This document shows, in pieces, positions 37,828 through 56,412 of a stretch of 56,412 nucleotides of DNA (its first letter is position 1; every line of letters starts with the position of its first letter). Origin of the DNA: Candidatus Micrarchaeia archaeon (lineage in GTDB: Archaea; Micrarchaeota; Micrarchaeia; Micrarchaeales; CABMGC01); the NCBI GenBank assembly GCA_049976305.1, contig JBMFIM010000002.1, positions 1 through 56,412 on the forward strand. The letters run 5' to 3'. Under the pieces are notes generated by a model that saw only the letters and a program-made list of their open reading frames with translations, was not told the origin of the DNA and searched no databases. The position numbers and the translations under genes are program-made.

Positions 37828-37902
37828 GGGCTCGTAGCTCAGCCTGGTCAGAGCGGCGGTCTTATAAGCCGTAGGTCGAGCGTTCAAATCGCTCCGGGCC
37901 CA
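37828..37902 (+). tRNA. tRNA-Ile (anticodon UAU)
   Basis: 75-nt hand fold: acceptor GGGCUCG/CGGGCCC, D arm GCUC-AGCCUGGUCA-GAGC, anticodon stem GCGGU/GCCGU with loop CUUAUAA, T arm GAGCG-UUCAAAU-CGCUC, discriminator A. Confidence 0.85.
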
Positions 37903-37905
37903 CTT

Positions 37906-47209: not shown

Positions 47210-47225
47210 AAGGAGCGAACAGAGA
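47210..47225 (+). repeat. 5' arm of the 23S rRNA processing stem (inverted repeat)
   Basis: AAGGAGCGAACAGAGA is the perfect reverse complement of 50043-50058. Confidence 0.85.
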
Positions 47226-47231
47226 GACTTT

Positions 47232-50040
47232 AAGCCACCTAGGGGATGGCTTGGCTCTAGCCGCTGCTAAGGCCGTGGCAAGCTGCGAAAAGCCTGGGGT
47301 AGCCGCATGTCAGGCTTTGAACCCAGGATCGCCGAATTGCACCATGCATAGTGGTGCATGCAGACGCGGGGAATTGAAGCATCTTAGTACCCGCAGGAAA
47401 AGAAACCAATGGGATGGCGCAAGTAACGGCGAGTGAAAGCGCTGTAGGGTATGCAGAATCCTTGCGCGCAAGTGCAAGGAGATGTTGCGCAGGTATTACG
47501 TGCACGTGAGCCGAAGGCCTTGGAAAAGGCCGCCATAGAGAGTGACAGCCTCGTAGGCGAAGCGTGTGCGCAACTTCCTGCGAGAAGAGTAGCGTAGCTC
47601 GAGTATGCTACGTGAAGATGGGGCGTTAAACTCCAACCCTAAACATAGGCTAGAGACCGATAGCGAACAAGTACCGCGAGGGAAAGCTGAAAAGAACCCA
47701 CGCGTGTGGGAGTGAAAAGATCTGAAACTAGGTGGCGACAAGAAGGTGCGGGCGTGAGCGTTGAAGCATGCAGAAGCGAGCATCGTGAGGTGCAAGCGAA
47801 GCGTGCTGAGCAGCGTTCCATCATTCTTCTCGAAGCAAGAGCCAGGGAGTGTATGGAAGTGGCAAGCCGAAAGGCGAAGCGAAAGCGAAGCCATCTTGGC
47901 GGGTGCGAAAGCGCCCAAGTCACTTTCATACGACCCGAAGCCGTTGTGAACTACGCGCGGCCAGGACGAAGTCGAGTTGATGCTCGATGGAGGTCCGCAA
48001 CCTGTCATGGCGTGTCCTGTTGGGTGAGCCGCGGGTAGGGGCGATAGACCATTCGAACACGGCAATAACGGGTCCCCTCCGAAGTATCTTTAGGATAGCC
48101 TCAGCTTAGCTCGCGCATGCGGTAGAGCTACCGATTAGACTGCCAGAGGCGAAAGCCTCTGCTCTCTAGTCAAACTCCGAATGCATGCGCTGCGTAGGCT
48201 GGGAGTCGGCGGCGCTGGGCAAGCTAGCGTCACGAGACTAGAACGATAGTGACAGAGGTTAAGGTCCCTAAATCCTAGTTGAGTGTCTTCGAGGAGGGCA
48301 TTGCCTTAGACAGTCGGGAGGTAGGCTCAGAAGCAGCCATCCTTCAAAAAACGCGTAACAGCGTACCGATCGAGGCAGTGCTCTCTGTAGATGGACGGGG
48401 CTAAACTAGGTACCGATACCCCTGCATCCGCAAGGATGAGTAGGAGGGCATGCTGCATTGCACGAAGCACTTCCGTGAGGAGGTGTGGACAATGCAGTAG
48501 AGAAAATCCTGGTGTTAGTAACAGCAAATAAGGGCGAGAATCCCTTACGCCTGAAGCACACGGTTTTCCTCGCAACAGTCGTTGGCGGGGAGTTAGCCGT
48601 TCCTAAGCAGGGAGCCAATCACTCCCCTGCAAAAGGGTAGCCTGTTAATATTCAGGCGCCAGGCACGTAGGTGTGGCAACACAAGGCAGATTTCTGACGC
48701 TTGGGGATAGGCCGCTTTGAAACGTGCAAAAGGCTGCGGAGTCTCATTATGAGGAGAAGCAGCTAAATGAACTTCGGCCAAATTCCTGAGCCCGTGAAAA
48801 GGGAATCTGCAACGATCGTGCCTGAACGTACCTAGAACCAGTACAGGTGCTGCTGGCTGAAAAGGCCAAGGCGTGTCGGGGATAAATCAGGTTAGGGAAC
48901 TCGGCAAGTTAGTGGCGTATGTTCTCTAGAAGCCATGTCTGCGCTGGGTAAGCGCAGATTGCAATAACAAGGGGGAAGCGACTGTTTCTTTAAAACACAA
49001 CTCACCGCTAAGCAGTAATGCTTTGTACAGTGGGTGACGCCTGCTCACCGCCAGTACGCGAAACCCCGAAAGGGGATAAACGCTGGCAAAGAGCGGGGGT
49101 AACTCTGACCCTCTTAAGGTAGCGTAATACCTCGTCGCTTAATAGGCGACCTGCATGAAGGGCGTAACGACTTCCCCAATGTCCCAACCTGGTGCCCGGT
49201 GAACTCACTGCGTGGTGTACATGCCACGTACCCTCAGTGGGAAACGAAGTCTCTATGAAACTTGACTACAGTCTGTTGTTGTCATGTTGCAACCGCTGCA
49301 TAGCGTAAGTGGGAGCGTCGAAGCATGCTCTTCGGGGCATGCGGAGCGACAATGTAACACCACTCTGCGGCTGCGGCGTGACTTACCGTAAAGGGACAGC
49401 GACAGATGGGTAGTTAGATTGGGCGGTTGCTTTCGATAAGGAAACGAAAGTGACCAAGGCTCTGCTTAGGTGGGTTGGAAACCCACTGTCAAGCTCAAAG
49501 GCAAATGCAGGGCTGACTGTACCTCGAAAAGCGGGAGGTGCAGACTCGAAAGAGGGGCTTACCGAGCGTTGGCAGCTCTTTTAACGGGGCTCCAACCTGT
49601 CAAAAAAGTTACTCTAGAGGTAACCGGTTCGTGGCTGGCGAGAGTTCACATCGACCCAGCCGTTTGATACACCGATATGGGCTTAGGTCATCCTGGTGGT
49701 GCAGGAGCCGCCAAGGGTCAGGCTGCTCGCCTGTCAAAGACCTACATGAGCTGAGTTAAGTCCGCCGCGAGGCAGGACGGTAGTATCTACTGAGGGTGTA
49801 AGTGTCAGAGGATAAGGTACCCCTAGTACGAGAGGAATGGGGTGCCGGCGCCTCCGGTTTAGCGGTTGTGTTCGCATGGCCGCGTAGCTGCGCGCTGAGG
49901 AATAAGCCCTGAAAGCATCTAAGGGCGAAGTCCGATCCGAAACGAGACACTTAGGGTGGCCGTATTACACGGCTTGATAGGGCGGCTGTGTAAGCCGGGA
50001 GCGCAAGCGACCGGTAAGCAGACCGTTACTAAAACCTAAA
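47232..50040 (+). rRNA. 23S (LSU) ribosomal RNA, about 2.8 kb, with approximate ends
   Basis: 5' region GGAUGGCUUGGCUCUAGCCGCUGCUAAGGCCGUGGCAAGCUGCGAAAAGCC, GGGGAAUUGAAGCAUCUUAGUACCCGCAGGAA, GTPase-centre GGCUCAGAAGCAGCCAUCC, sarcin-ricin loop AGUACGAGAGGAA at 49825-49837, and 3' GCUUGAUAGGGCGGCUGUGUAAGC. The gene is bracketed by a 16-bp inverted repeat. Confidence 0.93.
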
Positions 50041-50042
50041 AT

Positions 50043-50058
50043 TCTCTGTTCGCTCCTT
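50043..50058 (+). repeat. 3' arm of the 23S rRNA processing stem
   Basis: TCTCTGTTCGCTCCTT is complementary to 47210-47225 and is followed by a T-rich tract (TTGTTTTCTTGTTTATT). Confidence 0.85.
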
Positions 50059-50876: not shown

Positions 50877-51773
50877 ATGAAAGGAGTAGTAGTGGCGATT
50901 CCAAGGGATCTAGACCTGGCAGAGTACATTGGCAAGAAGGGCACCGCAAACGGCATTACCTTCTTCAACAGAAAGGCAAACGGCATAGCGATAACTGCAC
51001 TCATGCCCACTGACATAAGCGAAAAATACTATGCACTTGCGCAGGCAATAATGCTTGCAAATGCGGTGGTGCTATCAAGCAAAAGCGTAGATGTGCTTTT
51101 CGGGGAATCGCTTATCGCTTCTGCCCTTCTTGGCAAACAGGTAATACTGGTGGATGAAGCGGGAGAGGAAGAAAGAGCAAAGACAGAAAAAATGCTAGAA
51201 GATTCTGGAGCTAATTACAAGAGGATAAATAAAGAGGACTTGCTACAAACCATAGCAAGCTTAGAAGTAAAAGAAAACGGCGATAAGAGAATAGACATCG
51301 ACAGAGCGTTTCCCGTAAATGGCGTTGGAGACGTGGCACTTGGCATAGTGACTAGCGGCAGGGTTTTAAAGCACGACACGCTCTTGCATAGCTCAGGCAG
51401 AGAAGTTTTGATAAGATCTATACAGATTCAAGACGAGGACGTCAACGAGGCAGAGCAGGGAACGCGCGTCGGGCTCGCACTGAAGGGAATAACTTACAAG
51501 GAAATAGAGAAAGGGGACATTCTGGCATCTAACAGGATAGCGCCCACAAAAGAATTCTTAGCCAAAATAGATTTCTCGAAGTTTGCAAAGAAGCAAGAGG
51601 CTATGAGGTGCACGCTTGTCCACAATTTCTCAGCAAGCATTGCAAATCTGGCAAAGCAAGGAGAAGACTATGCAGTAAAGCTTGAAAAGCAAATTCCGAT
51701 AAGCAATAATGGCAAGTTTCTGCTTGTAGGAGACGAACCTCCAAGAATCTTTGCTGCTGGTACTGTTGAATAA
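50877..51773 (+). CDS. EF-Tu/EF-1A-like protein with a degenerate G domain and an intact domain II beta-barrel
   Basis: Domain II signature IDRAFPVNGVGDVALGIVTSGRVLKHDTLL..GREVLIRSIQIQDEDVNEAEQGTRVGLALKGITYKEIEKGDIL. The N-terminal region has IGKKGT instead of GxxxxGK[ST] and no DxxG. An NKED tetrapeptide lies near residue 118. Confidence 0.6.
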   Translation: MKGVVVAIPRDLDLAEYIGKKGTANGITFFNRKANGIAITALMPTDISEKYYALAQAIMLANAVVLSSKSVDVLFGESLIASALLGKQVILVDEAGEEERAKTEKMLEDSGANYKRINKEDLLQTIASLEVKENGDKRIDIDRAFPVNGVGDVALGIVTSGRVLKHDTLLHSSGREVLIRSIQIQDEDVNEAEQGTRVGLALKGITYKEIEKGDILASNRIAPTKEFLAKIDFSKFAKKQEAMRCTLVHNFSASIANLAKQGEDYAVKLEKQIPISNNGKFLLVGDEPPRIFAAGTVE

Positions 51774-51842
51774 AACAGGCGCAAACAAATCGTAAGAAAA
51801 ACAAAAAACATAAACCTATAGGTATATAATAAATCGGGTTTG

Positions 51843-53819
51843 ATGCGCTTAAAGAGTTATTACTTTTTTATATTTTCTCTGCTTGCACTAGCTTTTGCTT
51901 CTAGCTCCGCTACATTGAATGCATCGGTTACTGTCACATGCCCTTTCAAAGTAATTCTCAACGTCAGCCCGGCGTATATGCGATATGGCAACATAACTAT
52001 GCAGTATACCCTTCAGTCCATTACCGACTGCTTCATACAAGACATGCAGGGAAGTTTTGAAATTCTCAACGCCACTGGTGCAGTATTGTTGAAGAAGGGC
52101 CTGTTTGCAAACTACACAAACCTTACGCCGAGAACTTATAACCTAAGCCTAAAAGCAACCTCGCTTGCTAACGGCACTTACTATGCCTACGTAAAATTTG
52201 CAAACATGTATACGCAAGCAAGCAACACTTCCAAGTTTGAGCTTCTCAACCCTGCAAACATTGTGATAACAAGATTCTATGGAAGCGGAAGCACTGTGCC
52301 TCTCAACTCCCCATTTTATGTGTTTGTGAACATGACCAACACAGGACAGCTAACTTCAAACCCGATTCAGCTCAACATAAGCATCTCTGGCCCTGTGCCT
52401 TTCTCCTATACCTATACTATAGGCAAGCTTATGCCCCACGCTTATGAAAACATAAGCATATACATACCAAACATAACAACGCAGCATGGCAACTTCGCCG
52501 CCTATGCAGTAGCTTCGTACTCTACAAAGGCGCCCAATGCCAATGTAGTGGCCTACAATATATCAAATAGAATGAGCTTTAGCTTCTACGTGCTCCCAGG
52601 CAAACCCATAAAGCCCACGCCTACTCCGATAGTGCCAACGCCACTAGTAAGCCTGGTAAGTGCGCCTTTGCTTGTTGCAGTGCCTGCTGGCGTGCCTGTA
52701 GTTTCGCAGCTTAGCTTCTCAGACATCTCCACAGCACCAGAGACAGTGAACATAAGCATAAGCAAGGAGTTTGCAAGCATTGTGCATCTTTCTGCAAGCA
52801 CGCTCGAGCTTCTGCCAGGTCAAGTGCTTACTACGCAGGTTGTTTTTACACCTCTTTCAAACACAACGCCAGGCACATATATAGTGCCCATAAACATAAC
52901 AGCAACAATAGAGAACAAAAGCACCAGCACAACTGAGTTTGCGAGCATTATAGTAAGCAAGCCTACCAGTGCAGCTGAGCTTAGCACCCAGACTTTGCTT
53001 GTCAACAACACGAACCAAGCAAGCGCAACTCTAGCAATAAAAGCCCCGGCAAACACATCTCTTAGCAACTTCACCGTCGAGGTAAGAATACCTGCAAGCG
53101 CAGTAAGGAACATAAGCGACATCTATGCCTACGGCCTTCCTAACAACATTACAGAGCAAGATGGCTACTACGTGATAGACTACTATGTAACGTATCTGCC
53201 CAAAGGCCAAGAGACATATGCCTACTACACGCTGAACAGGCCGAACCAGGCTTTTCTGAGATTTGCGCAAAACCTTCTCATGATGCCCTCAAAGCCTGCC
53301 CCTGCACAGGCTTTGCGAATATTGAGCATAAGCACGCCGACGCTTTATACCAACTCCAGCACGAACATGACAGTAAGCGCGCTGTATACTGGCACAGCAG
53401 CTGGGCAAGTTTATTTTGCCATTACCGCCCCTCCTGGAGTTAGCGTAACGCCAGCAAGCATAGTGCAAAACGCATCGACAAACCAGCTTCTTTTGGCCAA
53501 TTTCAGATTAGCCTCTACAGGTTCTCCTGGCACATATATGCTAAGCCTCTATGCTGCTTATGCCGGCTACAACACCACTTACTCCATACCACTAATAGTA
53601 CTTCCGAAGCCTGTCTCTACTACTACTTCAACAATAGCCTACAAGCCGATAAGCCCAGTAGTGTCAGCCTATGCTGCATACGCCTCGCTTACAGCAATTG
53701 TTTTAATTTTAATTATTGTAGCTATAATCGGAACCAGGAAAAGGAAACCAAAACCTCAGTACAGGCAAGAGGTTGTTGAGCACCTTGCAAGGATAAGAGA
53801 GCAGATAAAAAGGGAGTAG
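51843..53819 (+). CDS. Large secreted, heavily sequon-rich surface (S-layer-like/CARDB-like) protein with a C-terminal TM anchor
   Basis: Signal peptide MRLKSYYFFIFSLLALAFASSSA, dozens of NxS/T sites, a Pro/Thr linker PGKPIKPTPTPIVPTP, and repeated beta-rich modules. The C-terminal TM YAAYASLTAIVLILIIVAIIG is followed by the basic tail RKRKPKPQYRQE. Confidence 0.7.
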   Translation: MRLKSYYFFIFSLLALAFASSSATLNASVTVTCPFKVILNVSPAYMRYGNITMQYTLQSITDCFIQDMQGSFEILNATGAVLLKKGLFANYTNLTPRTYNLSLKATSLANGTYYAYVKFANMYTQASNTSKFELLNPANIVITRFYGSGSTVPLNSPFYVFVNMTNTGQLTSNPIQLNISISGPVPFSYTYTIGKLMPHAYENISIYIPNITTQHGNFAAYAVASYSTKAPNANVVAYNISNRMSFSFYVLPGKPIKPTPTPIVPTPLVSLVSAPLLVAVPAGVPVVSQLSFSDISTAPETVNISISKEFASIVHLSASTLELLPGQVLTTQVVFTPLSNTTPGTYIVPINITATIENKSTSTTEFASIIVSKPTSAAELSTQTLLVNNTNQASATLAIKAPANTSLSNFTVEVRIPASAVRNISDIYAYGLPNNITEQDGYYVIDYYVTYLPKGQETYAYYTLNRPNQAFLRFAQNLLMMPSKPAPAQALRILSISTPTLYTNSSTNMTVSALYTGTAAGQVYFAITAPPGVSVTPASIVQNASTNQLLLANFRLASTGSPGTYMLSLYAAYAGYNTTYSIPLIVLPKPVSTTTSTIAYKPISPVVSAYAAYASLTAIVLILIIVAIIGTRKRKPKPQYRQEVVEHLARIREQIKRE

Positions 53820-54590
53820 ATGGATAGGCCATACTTAATAAGGATAAGCTCGCACAAAGGCGGAGTCGGCAAGACCACAATAGCTGCCAATTTAGCAACT
53901 GCTTTGCAGCTTATGGGCAAAAGGGTGTTTGTAATAGACGCCGACATTGCAAACCCAAGCCTTGGCTTCCACTTCGGCTTAGACCAGGCAAACATTGGCT
54001 ATTTTGAGGTTTTGCATGGCAAGGCACAGCTGAGAAATGCAATAGCTGTGCACGCGCCAACTGGCTTGCACATACTGCCGGGCACGCTACACTCAAGGAT
54101 AAGCTTGCCTACAAAGCAAGAGGTAAGGAAGCTTGCAAACCAGCTAAAAAGGCAGAAATATGATTACATAATAGTTGATACGCCCCCGGGCTTTTTCCAA
54201 GAAGAAGTTACAAAGGTATATGACGAGGCGCTCATAGTAGCAACGCCTGAGATGAGTGCGGTATCAAGCAGCATAAAGCTTGCAAGCACCTATGAGAGAG
54301 GCAAGCTAAAGCACAGCCTTGTGGTGAACAAGGTAAGCGGAAAAAGGTACGAGCTGAGCATAGAGGAGATAGAAGACGCATATGGCGACAAGGCGCTTGC
54401 AGCGTTGCCCGATGACGAAACTGTGCCTATGAGCATAGCTGCGCACATACCTGCATATCTCTACAAGCCTAGATGCCCGTTCAGCAAGGCGGTAAAGGAG
54501 CTTGCAAGGAGATACGCGGCAAGGACCGGCGAGCTTGGCGAAGAAGAGCACAGGCAAGGCTTTTGGGCAAGGCTCTTTGGCTTGCAATAA
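53820..54590 (+). CDS. minD: MinD/ParA-family P-loop ATPase with a C-terminal amphipathic helix
   Basis: Deviant Walker A SSHKGGVGKTT, DADIANPS, Walker B IIVDTPPG, and a C-terminal RQGFWARLFGLQ. The ATG immediately follows the upstream TAG (53817-53822 = TAGATG). Confidence 0.85.
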   Translation: MDRPYLIRISSHKGGVGKTTIAANLATALQLMGKRVFVIDADIANPSLGFHFGLDQANIGYFEVLHGKAQLRNAIAVHAPTGLHILPGTLHSRISLPTKQEVRKLANQLKRQKYDYIIVDTPPGFFQEEVTKVYDEALIVATPEMSAVSSSIKLASTYERGKLKHSLVVNKVSGKRYELSIEEIEDAYGDKALAALPDDETVPMSIAAHIPAYLYKPRCPFSKAVKELARRYAARTGELGEEEHRQGFWARLFGLQ

Positions 54591-54591
54591 T

Positions 54592-54601
54592 TATTTAAAT
54601 A
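54592..54601 (+). promoter_or_regulatory. TATA box candidate upstream of the 54639 gene
   Basis: TATTTAAATA lies about 40 nt upstream of ATG 54639, with GGTG 6 nt upstream of the ATG. Confidence 0.35.
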
Positions 54602-54638
54602 TTTATGTTTCATAACTTACAAGGCGATCGGTGTTTAG

Positions 54639-55616
54639 ATGACAAACAATTTTTGGCACATTTTCTATGCGATAATAGCGTCTGTTGCAATAGCGACTTC
54701 GTTTGCACTACTCTCTACTTTAGGTTTGGCTTCTGCAGCCAGTGCACCTTCCAATGTTCTAGCATCTGCCAACGTGCTCTACACACTGTACACTTCTGTA
54801 AGCCCCAACACGATAAATCTTGGCAATGTAAATCCAAACTCAAATATTCCGACAAACAATATGATTACTGTATCTGATATTAACGGCAACATAGGTGCTA
54901 ATGTGTTTATAGAAGGCACAAACTTCGTATATGGTAGTAATAGCATCTACGTTTCAAACACATTATGGAGCCCTACTAGCAATACCGCCTACGTCGGCAC
55001 GCCACTTACACTCTCTTATGCCGACACTGCTATTCACATAAACGCCCCAACGCAAACAACAACATCGCAAAGCGCACCAATTTACTTCGGATTCAACATA
55101 CCTGGAGGCACGCCGGCAGGCACATACACGCAGACAATAACTTTCCAGAATGAGAACGTGACTTATTCGGTTAACGCTCTTACAACCGCTAACGTTGTAG
55201 TAACAGCAAACGTGCAGCAAGTTTGCTACATAACCTTGAGCACCAATTCCATAAACTTTGGCCAGATACCTGCAGCTGGAAACACAGGATATACGGCCAA
55301 TGGCATAGTAGACTACAACCAGGGAGGCAACGTAGCTGCAAACATACTTGTGGAAGGCACTAATTGGAACGAGGTGTCGCCAGTAACAGGCAACAGCTTC
55401 GGAGTTAGCAACACTGTCTGGGGCACGAGCAATACTGTTGCATATAGCGCAGGAACACCACTTGGCAACACGCTTGCTGATACCAATATACAGATACCTG
55501 CTCCAACCCAGACCACACCAACTACGTCAAACAACATTTACTTCGGCCTTGGCATACCTGGAGGCACGCCTGCAGGAGTTTACCAGCAAACAATAACCAT
55601 AGAGAACAGCTGCTGA
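54639..55616 (+). CDS. Secreted protein made of two tandem homologous beta-rich domains (fimbrial/adhesin-like)
   Basis: Signal/anchor WHIFYAIIASVAIATSFALLSTLGLASAASA. Two units of about 135 aa share EGTN[FW]...VSNT[LV]W...GTPL...ADT.I.I.APTQTT...IYFG..IPGGTPAG.Y.QTIT..N. Confidence 0.7.
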   Translation: MTNNFWHIFYAIIASVAIATSFALLSTLGLASAASAPSNVLASANVLYTLYTSVSPNTINLGNVNPNSNIPTNNMITVSDINGNIGANVFIEGTNFVYGSNSIYVSNTLWSPTSNTAYVGTPLTLSYADTAIHINAPTQTTTSQSAPIYFGFNIPGGTPAGTYTQTITFQNENVTYSVNALTTANVVVTANVQQVCYITLSTNSINFGQIPAAGNTGYTANGIVDYNQGGNVAANILVEGTNWNEVSPVTGNSFGVSNTVWGTSNTVAYSAGTPLGNTLADTNIQIPAPTQTTPTTSNNIYFGLGIPGGTPAGVYQQTITIENSC

Positions 55617-55625
55617 TGTGTTTCA

Positions 55626-56339
55626 ATGCAGAAAATTGTTTTATTTCTCTTTTCTTTGCTAATAATTTCAGCTTATGCTCAGCTTGGCGAAGTAGCAGGG
55701 CCTTTGAATTTCAATGTTAGCATTGGAAGCTCGCAGACTCAGCAGCTTGTGCTTATAAACGGGGGCAGTACACCTATAACTGTAAAAACCACACTGAACT
55801 CGATAACCCAAATAGCCAATACGATAACTCCGAGCATGACGTTTAGCCCGGAGGTTGCTACCATACCTCCGCACAGCCAGCTTGCAATAAACGTAACAGT
55901 GATAATGCCTTATAACAAATCAGACATAGGCAAGCATTGGGAAGCAATAATCTCTGCTGTAGAGCAGTCAAACATAACAATATCTGGCACGGGCGCTGTG
56001 GTAGTGGCAGGAATGGCAAAAATAGCAAACATAACGGCGCTGCCACCAAAGACCAATTGGCTTCTTATAATAGGAATAGGTGTGGTAGTAGCTGCTGTAG
56101 CGGCGATTGGAGCAGGCAGTTATTACTACTTTGCAGTTGTTAAGAAGAAGGCAGCAAAGGCTGCAAGGCTTGCAGCTACAAGAAAGCTTAGAATGGCTGG
56201 CGCCAAAGCTCCTGCAAGGGCCAGAAGGGCTAAAGCAAGGGCAAGAGCTAGAAAGCCGGCTAGGAGAGCGGCAAGGAGGCCTGCAAGGCGCGCAGCGACA
56301 AGACGCGCCACTAGAAGAGCTACAAGAAGGACAAGGTAG
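55626..56339 (+). CDS. Signal-peptide protein with an Ig-like ectodomain, a single TM, and a 65-aa Ala/Arg/Lys cytoplasmic tail
   Basis: Signal peptide MQKIVLFLFSLLIISAYAQ, a beta-rich ectodomain with sequons, and the TM WLLIIGIGVVVAAVAAIGAGSYYYFAVV. The tail is KKKAAKAARLAATRKLRMAGAKAPARARRAKARARARKPARRAARRPARRAATRRATRRATRRTR. Confidence 0.7.
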   Translation: MQKIVLFLFSLLIISAYAQLGEVAGPLNFNVSIGSSQTQQLVLINGGSTPITVKTTLNSITQIANTITPSMTFSPEVATIPPHSQLAINVTVIMPYNKSDIGKHWEAIISAVEQSNITISGTGAVVVAGMAKIANITALPPKTNWLLIIGIGVVVAAVAAIGAGSYYYFAVVKKKAAKAARLAATRKLRMAGAKAPARARRAKARARARKPARRAARRPARRAATRRATRRATRRTR

Positions 56340-56412
56340 CATCTCGCGTTTTTAATTTTAGGATGTATTTTTAATTTTTACATGGTAATGGAATAGAGGC
56401 CATGTCAATACG

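Follow-up and report, generated by a model that had tools for sequence, protein, structure and literature searches.

The window analyzed here is a stretch of 56,412 nucleotides from a Candidatus Micrarchaeia archaeon (contig JBMFIM010000002.1, assembly GCA_049976305.1). It carries most of a conserved, Micrarchaeota-specific cluster of five genes. These encode a single-pass surface glycoprotein (P1), a MinD-type ATPase (MinD), a secreted protein of two beta-rich domains (P3), a type I membrane protein with an Ig-like domain (P4) and a very large secreted protein (the giant). The secreted proteins of the cluster share one beta-sandwich module. On comparative genomic grounds the functional linkage of MinD to the cluster is well supported, and the five genes probably form one functional system. 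The function proposed for it, with just under even confidence, is a surface adhesin or fiber apparatus that would be coupled from the cytoplasm to a membrane-binding, MinD-type positioning ATPase. Surface-appendage loci with a MinD/ParA-family ATPase have been described before. The present cluster differs in its partner set of Sec-type, pilin-like and PapD-like proteins outside the type IV filament family, in the close pairing of a MinD gene with the gene of a single-pass glycoprotein, and in being confined to the Micrarchaeota. Literature searches returned no description of this cluster.

Organization of the cluster

The window had been read earlier from its letters alone (the sequence-only reading) as holding four co-directional, tightly packed genes. 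This was confirmed, as all four open reading frames (ORFs), their junctions and their sequence features were verified in the window sequence (Table 1). The P1 stop codon TAG (53817-53819) abuts the MinD ATG (53820-53822), with GGGAG just 5' of it. The gap from MinD to P3 is 48 nt and that from P3 to P4 is 9 nt. The description of a four-gene module was right for these four. It missed the fifth gene, which is cut off by the end of the window, and the C-terminal domain common to the secreted proteins, and the four genes are probably not one operon. In locus L007, a contig 98-99% identical to the window, a gene of 1339 aa starts 62 nt after P4, and the window closes with the first 11 nt of this gene. 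All named homologues came from Micrarchaeota metagenome-assembled genomes, a few of them carrying the label "Marsarchaeota", which agrees with the DPANN-type archaeon suggested in the sequence-only reading.

Profiles for MinD, P1, the P3 domain and the P4 ectodomain were mapped onto 74 metagenomic loci and onto long-contig loci. MinD was present in 22 loci of the first-mapped batch, and no locus with both flanks readable was without it. All eight of the long-contig loci picked via P3 homologues (L003, L005, L007, L008, L084, L087, L088 and L089) contained a co-directional MinD. Two look-ups starting from P1 homologues recovered the same cluster, and the arrangement recurs in approximately 25 independent loci overall, which represent at least 12 lineages with <70% identity between their MinDs. 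The conservation of the neighborhood in relatives, with MinD traveling alongside P1, a P3-type protein and P4, had been put forward as a check and was found. The module MinDs fall into at least 11 groups at <70% identity. Their linkage to the cluster persists through an inversion (L010), through relocation of the giant gene and through insertion of unrelated reverse-strand genes (L084, L087, L089), and the genes flanking the cluster differ completely between lineages. L001 was an apparent exception, and its MinD was found with the longer flank available in L084. The linkage is not readable in L025, where the giant gene runs off the contig. A single-sequence MinD query of genome contigs returned only one irrelevant bacterial match at 21% identity.

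In most other lineages a giant-class gene (~750-2000 aa) sits between MinD and P3. Two or three small P3-type paralogues are present in L008, L088 and L085, and L086 has no free P3, only a protein ending in a P3 domain followed by P4. Because the small paralogues are multiple in some lineages and zero in others, the conserved core is P1, MinD, at least one protein ending in a P3-type domain, and P4. The gap from P1 to MinD has a median of 5 nt (range -14 to +99, n = 14) with frequent overlaps, and the gap from P3 to P4 a median of 7 nt (n = 53 junctions). Longer gaps were found between MinD and the giant (median 110 nt) and between the giant and P3 (median 230 nt). A TATA-like motif, usually TTTAAATA, lies 28-55 nt 5' of P3 in 45 of 55 loci. 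It is usually followed by a GGCGA or GGTGA element, and the window has Shine-Dalgarno-like GGCGA and GGTG elements at 54622-54632. Because of these gap lengths and the TATA-like motif in the gap between MinD and P3, the genes appear to be split into two or more transcription units, one of P1-MinD and one of P3-P4 with a strong predicted promoter.

Table 1. Coordinates of the cluster genes and motifs in the window and of related features in other loci.
Feature	Sequence	Position	Strand	Remarks
P1	Window	51840..53819	+	659 aa from TTG; 658 aa from ATG at 51843
MinD-type deviant Walker A ATPase	Window	53820..54590	+	256 aa
Walker A KGGVGKTT	Window	53856-53879	+	MinD motif
C-terminal GFWARLFGLQ, like a membrane-targeting sequence	Window	54558-54587	+	MinD motif
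TATA-box-like element TTTAAATA	Window	54594..54601	+	Sequence read; 38-45 nt 5' of P3 start codon
P3, secreted, two beta-rich domains	Window	54639..55616	+	325 aa
P4, type I membrane protein, Ig-like domain	Window	55626..56339	+	237 aa
Fifth cluster gene, first 11 nt	Window	56402..56412	+	ATGTCAATACG = MSIR...; rest beyond window end
FtsZ	L024	11812-12855	-	
FtsZ	L054	11935-13086	-	
FtsZ	L019	3054-4127	-	
Tubulin-family paralogue	L027	3506-4234	+	
Laminin_G_3 protein	L007	15727-17184	-	
Laminin_G_3 protein	L084	7604-9067	-	
Laminin_G_3 proteins	L087	15997-16890, 19102-20013		
Laminin_G_3 proteins	L019, L054, L073			

The MinD ATPase

By sequence, MinD is a deviant Walker A ATPase of the ParA/MinD family. 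Pfam gave ParA (7e-20) and CbiA (1e-17). The best NCBIfam match was minD_arch (TIGR01969; 2.5e-46) at 157.9 bits, which is below the family cutoff of 201.75. The best match in the PDB was Pyrococcus MinD 1ion (1.5e-29), and the archaeal MinDs 1ion, 1g3q and 1hyq matched at 1e-25 to 1e-29. The window protein carries the motifs SSHKGGVGKTT, DADIANPS and IIVDTPPG. In an alignment with Escherichia coli MinD, the signature Lys, the Walker A Lys, the switch-I DxD and the Walker B Asp were kept in all 17 module MinDs. With all catalytic motifs kept, the enzyme is predicted to be catalytically intact.

The C-terminus had been likened to the membrane-targeting sequence (MTS) of bacterial MinD. A motif similar to KGFLKRLFGG of E. 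coli was found across lineages, as GFWARLFGLQ, GFFAWLMRLFGR, SFWRALLNLFGRNR and GIIAFLKRLFRLGG. Module MinDs retain this motif, and the degenerate paralogue described below has lost it. The further claim, that no MinC, MinE, FtsZ, ParB, archaellum or chemotaxis gene lies nearby, stood for the 36 larger window ORFs that were scanned, some ORFs of at least 110 aa lying outside the scan; it did not stand for FtsZ in several other lineages, where that gene adjoins the cluster. The other window ORFs scanned were housekeeping genes (RNA polymerase, ribosomal proteins, PolB, SRP54). MinC and MinE were likewise not found in the gene tables of the retrieved loci.

The P1 glycoprotein

P1 is a type I membrane glycoprotein. 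Its N-terminal signal peptide leads into a multi-Ig ectodomain of CARDB type that carries 27 N-x-S/T sequons, followed by a transmembrane segment at residues ~604-635 (53649-53744) and a basic cytoplasmic tail of 24 aa (53745-53816). The tail sequence is RKRKPKPQYRQEVVEHLARIREQIKRE, opening with RKRKPKPQYRQE. Sequon density per 100 aa is 3.5 in P1, 2.1 in P4 and 0.5 in P3. Full-length searches gave only 6 homologues of P1 and 9 of P4, because P1 evolves fast and the P4 tail is of low complexity, and both families were rebuilt from the retrieved loci. CARDB was matched in 10 of the 16 P1 family members, NEW3 in 5 and Cep192_D3 in 4 (Pfam).

A sparse motif is present in the P1 tails. It consists of basic residues, Y641 (15 of 16 members), L649 (all 16) and I, L, V or M at positions 652 and 656 (all 16). 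The tail of the L003 protein, RAKELIRIREQIKR, is like the MinE contact helix of E. coli, which we take to be NIAKERLQIIVAERR. This likeness is a lead only.

SLP_Mh, a Micrarchaeota S-layer protein, has an S_layer_N domain (PF05123) and a size of ~101 kDa (bioRxiv 10.1101/2021.04.28.441871). P1 was ruled out as the S-layer protein because a PF05123 match was absent from P1 and from 16 family members; its size is also wrong.

P3, the shared module and the giant protein

P3 is built of two tandem beta-sandwich copies at residues ~50-172 and ~183-325 (AlphaFold2 model, pLDDT 92.9). The two domains aligned to each other in hhalign at a probability of 100%, marking them as tandem duplicates. The N-terminal extension of the protein (residues ~35-50) is conserved, and C196 and the C-terminal C325 make up an invariant Cys pair. 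Foldseek placed CfaB-CfaB, an engineered pilin-pilin fusion complemented in cis, at the top, with CsuE, CooA and CsuA/B (template modeling (TM) scores of 0.43-0.51). A Foldseek search of the ectodomains had been proposed in the sequence-only reading, and for P3 it led to chaperone-usher pilins and adhesins by fold. P3 as an SCPU/Csu homologue by sequence was ruled out at the level of the family, with SCPU matched in 3 of 60 members and all matches sub-threshold (best E 0.0034).

In an all-against-all BLAST the last ~125 residues of every giant were 38-50% identical to P3 residues 196-325. The alignment spans the region from the invariant C196 to the C-terminal Cys, and all giants end in ...Q[TN]I..EN.C. 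An exhaustive profile search for the P3-type domain returned 819 representative clusters with three architectures: two-domain proteins of ~320 aa, single-domain proteins of ~170 aa, and large proteins in which the domain is always at the extreme C-terminus. Pfam was uninformative on the giants. Among NCBIfam models PGF_pre_PGF (TIGR04213) matched two of six giants, including that of L007 at 64 bits.

Residues 38-47 of P3 (SNVLASANVL) are homologous to residues 183-192 (ANVVVTANVQ). The latter form the 10-residue strand between the two domains, while the former are coil in the monomer model though conserved. This asymmetry would be expected if the internal copy acts as an in-cis donor strand, so that the N-terminus would offer an unpaired donor and the last domain an open acceptor. 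The CfaB-CfaB fusion as the top fold match fits such an arrangement. That P3 forms a donor-strand polymer is a tentative proposal, and on balance a somewhat doubtful one.

The P4 membrane protein

The signal peptide of P4 is followed by a mature N-terminus that is nearly invariant (AQLGExAG), a single PapD/ASH-like Ig domain (residues ~27-139), a transmembrane segment and a polybasic, Arg-rich tail of 65 aa (56142-56336). The ectodomain was modeled by AlphaFold2 at a pLDDT of ~86-92. Foldseek matched it to PapD-like domain 7 of CEP192 (TM score 0.65), a PapD-like domain of HYDIN (0.68), MSP/VAP (0.55) and the N-domains of the chaperones FaeE and Caf1M, with E from 1e-5 to 1e-7, and also to the chaperone YadV. 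Pfam matches over the family were to Cep192_D6 (16 of 40 members), the CFAP65 Ig domain (15), OCRL-ASH (13), WxLIP_PGBD (8, weak), PapD_N (3) and MSP (3). A PDB sequence profile search gave HYDIN at 0.0018. The modeled ectodomain is thus placed in the PapD-like/ASH/MSP Ig superfamily, at the level of the superfamily only because all sequence matches were sub-threshold. P4 as a P3-type pilin anchor by homology was ruled out (hhalign probability 1%).

Across homologues K+R make up 46% of the P4 tail and D+E 3%, at a median length of 63 aa, and the tail is polybasic in every case. The basic tails of P1 and P4 had been taken as cytoplasmic in the sequence-only reading. The order of features in both proteins, with signal peptide, sequon-rich ectodomain, transmembrane segment and then K/R-rich tail, bears this out.

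The P4 tail is a case of extreme Ala/Arg/Lys low complexity, ends in RRRxR in most lineages and is like nucleic-acid-binding tails in composition. In L086 (5881-6589) P4 is present as two overlapping ORFs of 106 and 135 aa, representing a frameshift, a pseudogene or a sequencing error. In L075 (4041-4602) a truncated P4 of 125 aa is directly followed by a 3' remnant of the module MinD (65 aa), the result of a rearrangement of two cluster copies or of misassembly.

Proposed mechanism and alternative explanations

A plausible mechanism can be outlined. P3 units may link head-to-tail by way of the conserved N-terminal strand, much like donor-strand subunits, and the giant would be at the distal end. 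P4 would bind the shared P3-type module by beta-strand augmentation and serve as a membrane anchor or a membrane-tethered chaperone. On the cytoplasmic side, ATP-bound MinD dimers would be held at the membrane by the C-terminal helix and would contact the tail of P1, which is short, basic and helical, and perhaps the tail of P4 as well. The site, number or timing of surface assemblies would be governed by this contact, much as other appendages are controlled by FlhG, TadZ and Haloferax MinD4. Attachment to a host cell or to a biofilm would be the likely use. The case for MinD acting through the P1 tail is evenly balanced. The full combination, a Sec-dependent non-type-IV fiber with strand-exchanged subunits, a giant adhesin tip, a PapD-like membrane anchor or chaperone and a MinD reading the tail of a CARDB glycoprotein, is unlikely to be right in every part.

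Several findings weigh against a fiber apparatus positioned by MinD. The pilin likeness of P3 is at the level of fold only, Ig-like folds match promiscuously, and the P3 profile found no relative among all PDB sequences. P3 is sequon-poor though likely the major subunit, and the archaeal fibers known to us are heavily glycosylated. P4 has one PapD-like domain compared to two in true chaperones, and it has no profile-level kinship to P3. The separate predicted promoter means that P3-P4 could be regulated independently of P1-MinD. The P1 tail is no better conserved overall than the ectodomain (mean pairwise identity 0.29 compared to 0.30). The test of amphipathicity for the MinD C-terminus, a comparison of hydrophobic moment with shuffled sequences, was uninformative: the C-terminus did not stand out from the shuffles, and the test had no discriminating power because the E. 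coli MinD control failed too. L023 and L050/L074 are without P1-MinD directly upstream, both being cut off shortly after P4; directly upstream there are glycosyltransferase-like reverse genes ahead of the giant in L023 (by eye, from N-terminal sequences) and an archaeal ATPase (PF01637) in L050/L074. Of the 26 loci whose downstream DNA is readable for at least 1.5 kb, 6 have FtsZ near the cluster.

The alternative that survives best is a non-filamentous surface complex, itself rather unlikely. The P3-type domain would then dock P3 and the giant onto P4, and possibly P1, and MinD would gather the anchors into patches; the complex would be comparable to WxL/Csc complexes or to the SlaA-SlaB anchoring of S-layers. 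Minimal clusters made up of only a P3-domain-ending protein and then P4 (L086, L067/L068) are consistent with this, as are the 7-nt spacing of P3 and P4, which fits 1:1 partners, the low sequon content of P3 and the lack of relationship between P4 and P3. WxLIP structures were also among the P3 fold matches, beside the weak WxLIP_PGBD matches in the P4 family. The consensus TATA box of P3 and its duplication or triplication (L008, L085), however, suit an abundant repeating subunit. An N-terminal segment that is conserved yet unstructured, with an internal repeat that forms the inter-domain strand, also speaks for a polymer, and the best fold matches of P3 are polymers of pilins.

It is improbable that P1 and MinD act in cell division or in general cell-pole organization and are merely historical neighbors of the giant, P3 and P4. 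Micrarchaeota genome papers list minD only as a division gene (PMC8784108). A true FtsZ (Tubulin and FtsZ_C domains) is convergent with P4 and 50-160 nt after it in L024/L087, L054 and L019/L059, and lies ~4 kb from the cluster in L067/L068 (Table 1). In L027/L036 the gene after P4, in the same orientation, is that of a distant tubulin-family paralogue (GTPase domain only, 29% identical to the cluster-adjacent FtsZ). The P3-P4 pair also has its own promoter element, and the two gene pairs can be separated by the giant gene and by insertions. Against this, 20 of the 26 loci with readable downstream DNA have no FtsZ within 2-9 kb, including the lineage of the window (L007), where the vicinity of the cluster holds no division-related gene. 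Where FtsZ is present it is part of an opposite-strand housekeeping block of ribosomal L10e, diphthamide synthase and glutamate dehydrogenase. Because the FtsZ-bearing loci share this block, the adjacency is most simply read as background synteny within a single sub-clade. The linkage of MinD to the cluster outlasts rearrangements and complete turnover of the flanks. The bacterial Min system differs in its MinC and MinE, which were not found among the scanned window ORFs or in the gene tables of the loci, and in its tie to FtsZ. The abstract of PMC11588486 indicates that no classical division-placement role was found for MinD homologues in earlier Haloferax work.

A second MinD-like gene lies beside FtsZ, divergent from it and just downstream of the cluster, in L024 (13008-13769) and L087 (13068-13805). 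Its Walker A Lys (GKT to GTT), switch-I DxD motif and C-terminal helix are gone, and in these loci P1 retains the intact MinD as its neighbor. As its catalytic and C-terminal motifs are lost, the paralogue may be a pseudo-ATPase paired with FtsZ. A degenerate copy at FtsZ and an intact one at P1 argues for specialization of the module MinD, which may yet have some link to division.

A role for MinD in biogenesis, as a SIMIBI-class NTPase delivering, inserting or holding P1 and P4 or gating subunit export or glycosylation, would suit the C-terminal anchoring of both proteins with short or basic cytoplasmic ends, the weaker matches of MinD to ArsA/Get3 (TIGR00345, 2.4e-8) and SRP54-type domains and the abutting or overlapping of its gene with P1 in most lineages, but is very unlikely since P1 and P4 have N-terminal signal peptides and are therefore predicted Sec/SRP substrates and not tail-anchored proteins, MinD proper is by far the closer family (TIGR01969) and the ATPase keeps the membrane-targeting motif typical of patterning MinDs.

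Comparison with known systems

A surface module coupled to MinD has bacterial precedents. TadZ, FlhG and BcsQ are MinD/ParA-family ATPases linked to surface appendages, and TadZ/CpaE, encoded in bacterial Tad pilus loci, has a presumed regulatory or positional role. In archaea, FleN/MinD ATPases (arCOG00589) are found in type IV pilus loci, sometimes with S-layer-like proteins (Makarova et al. 2016, PMC4858521). The sequence-only reading knew of no described MinD-coupled surface module, and these loci make that statement too strong. Taken as a whole, that reading was partly supported. As in the present cluster, archaeal type IV pilus loci have a MinD/ParA ATPase within or beside the appendage genes, often with S-layer-like or adhesin proteins, and the role of the ATPase there is presumed to be regulatory or positional, not that of a motor (PMC4858521). 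Tad loci likewise have such an ATPase. The present cluster differs in that no type IV filament gene was found in the scanned window ORFs or in the cluster loci; in the Pfam scan of the window a VirB11/PilB-type ATPase, a TadC-like platform and a prepilin peptidase were all not found. P1, P3, P4 and the giants have long hydrophobic N-termini with A-x-A-like sites, which by eye are Sec-type and not class III, and MinD is paired with a single-pass CARDB glycoprotein instead of a secretion machine.

In Haloferax volcanii, the placement of archaella and chemosensory arrays depends on MinD4 and on its MTS (bioRxiv 10.1101/2020.04.03.021790). Haloferax MinD4 and MinD2 and bacterial FlhG/FleN are MinD ATPases with a C-terminal MTS homologous to that of E. 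coli MinD, which compares with the MTS-like motif of the module MinD. They act on the placement or number of surface machinery and not on the Z-ring, the kind of role proposed here (bioRxiv 10.1101/2020.04.03.021790; PMC11588486). MinD4 differs in a long C-terminal extension and in its cargo of archaellum and chemosensory arrays. At 256 aa the window MinD is short. In most cases the MinD gene abuts or overlaps the gene of the membrane glycoprotein, and it belongs to a non-motility adhesin cluster. No membrane-protein partner is named in the MinD4 preprint (bioRxiv 10.1101/2020.04.03.021790) or in the available part of PMC11588486, and the preprint makes no mention of an operon or gene neighborhood.

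Bacterial chaperone-usher pili, above all those of the archaic and alternate classes (Csu, CFA/I), are similar in the folds matched by P3 (CfaB-CfaB, CsuE, CooA, CsuA/B) and P4 (FaeE, Caf1M, YadV) and in having subunits with a conserved N-terminal extension. FimH, CsuE and CfaE are large adhesins that carry a subunit-type domain, which compares with the P3-type domain at the C-terminus of the giant. The differences are that an usher-like gene was present in no locus, that P4 has a single Ig domain and is membrane-anchored, and that homology is not detectable at the level of sequence. To our knowledge archaea have no outer membrane, and we know of no cytoplasmic ATPase in chaperone-usher systems.

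WxL/Csc loci of Gram-positive bacteria encode small and very large secreted proteins that share a C-terminal domain, and their genes lie beside that of a C-terminally anchored partner with Ig domains. No significant sequence relationship to the present cluster was found, and archaea offer no peptidoglycan for attachment. We know of no ATPase in WxL loci.

Donor-strand fibers of archaea include the Sulfolobus threads (PMC9715654), the bundling pili of Pyrobaculum (PMC9245690) and the cannulae of Pyrodictium (PMC12518558). They resemble the proposed apparatus in having Sec-exported, non-type-IV beta-sandwich subunits and a minor or cap subunit gene beside that of the major one. The gene cluster reported for the threads is without an ATPase, and the threads are heavily glycosylated compared to the sequon-poor P3. 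Their assembly pathway is described as unknown (PMC9715654), and MinD is not mentioned in the papers on the three fibers (PMC9715654, PMC9245690, PMC12518558). Uncharacterized thin filaments were seen by cryo-electron tomography (cryo-ET) on the cultivated Micrarchaeon ARM-1 (PMC11329633).

The cluster bears on several of these subjects. For the anchoring and assembly of non-type-IV archaeal fibers, it offers pilin-like subunits encoded beside a PapD-like membrane protein. For the attachment of DPANN episymbionts, it is a phylum-wide surface cluster, strongly promoted as judged by sequence, with a giant adhesin-like member. No membrane partner of an archaeal MinD was found defined in the literature searched, and the P1 tail is a specific candidate peptide. 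If the fiber apparatus positioned by MinD is real, it would be an archaeal analogue of chaperone-usher systems under the control of a cytoplasmic ATPase, serving host attachment, and it would supply the first defined membrane partner of an archaeal MinD. Should the genes be linked by synteny only, the work still yields a new family (the 819 representative clusters), and "cell division" no longer serves as the default label of minD in the Micrarchaeota, a lineage with cultivated representatives and with existing proteome and cryo-ET data.

Other features of the window and flanking regions

A 298-aa protein (50877-51773 in the window) matches EF-Tu domains 2 and 4 and aligns to SelB/EF-1alpha from residue ~120; a GTPase domain was not detected in it. 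It is specific to the flank of the cluster in the lineage of the window. A lone archaeal 23S rRNA gene is located at 47217-50051. The rRNA genes are unlinked here, since 16S and 5S rRNA were not found by Rfam anywhere in the 56-kb window. A tRNA-Ile gene with anticodon UAU was predicted by ARAGORN at 37828-37903. This tRNA is an unusual archaeal route to decode AUA, for which most archaea use a modified CAU tRNA. An ORF of 187 aa without a Pfam match (L007, 17462-18025, minus strand) recurs beside P3 or the giant in one group of lineages (L025, L035, L049 and L070). Many lineages also encode secreted Laminin_G_3 proteins a few kb or less from the cluster (Table 1).

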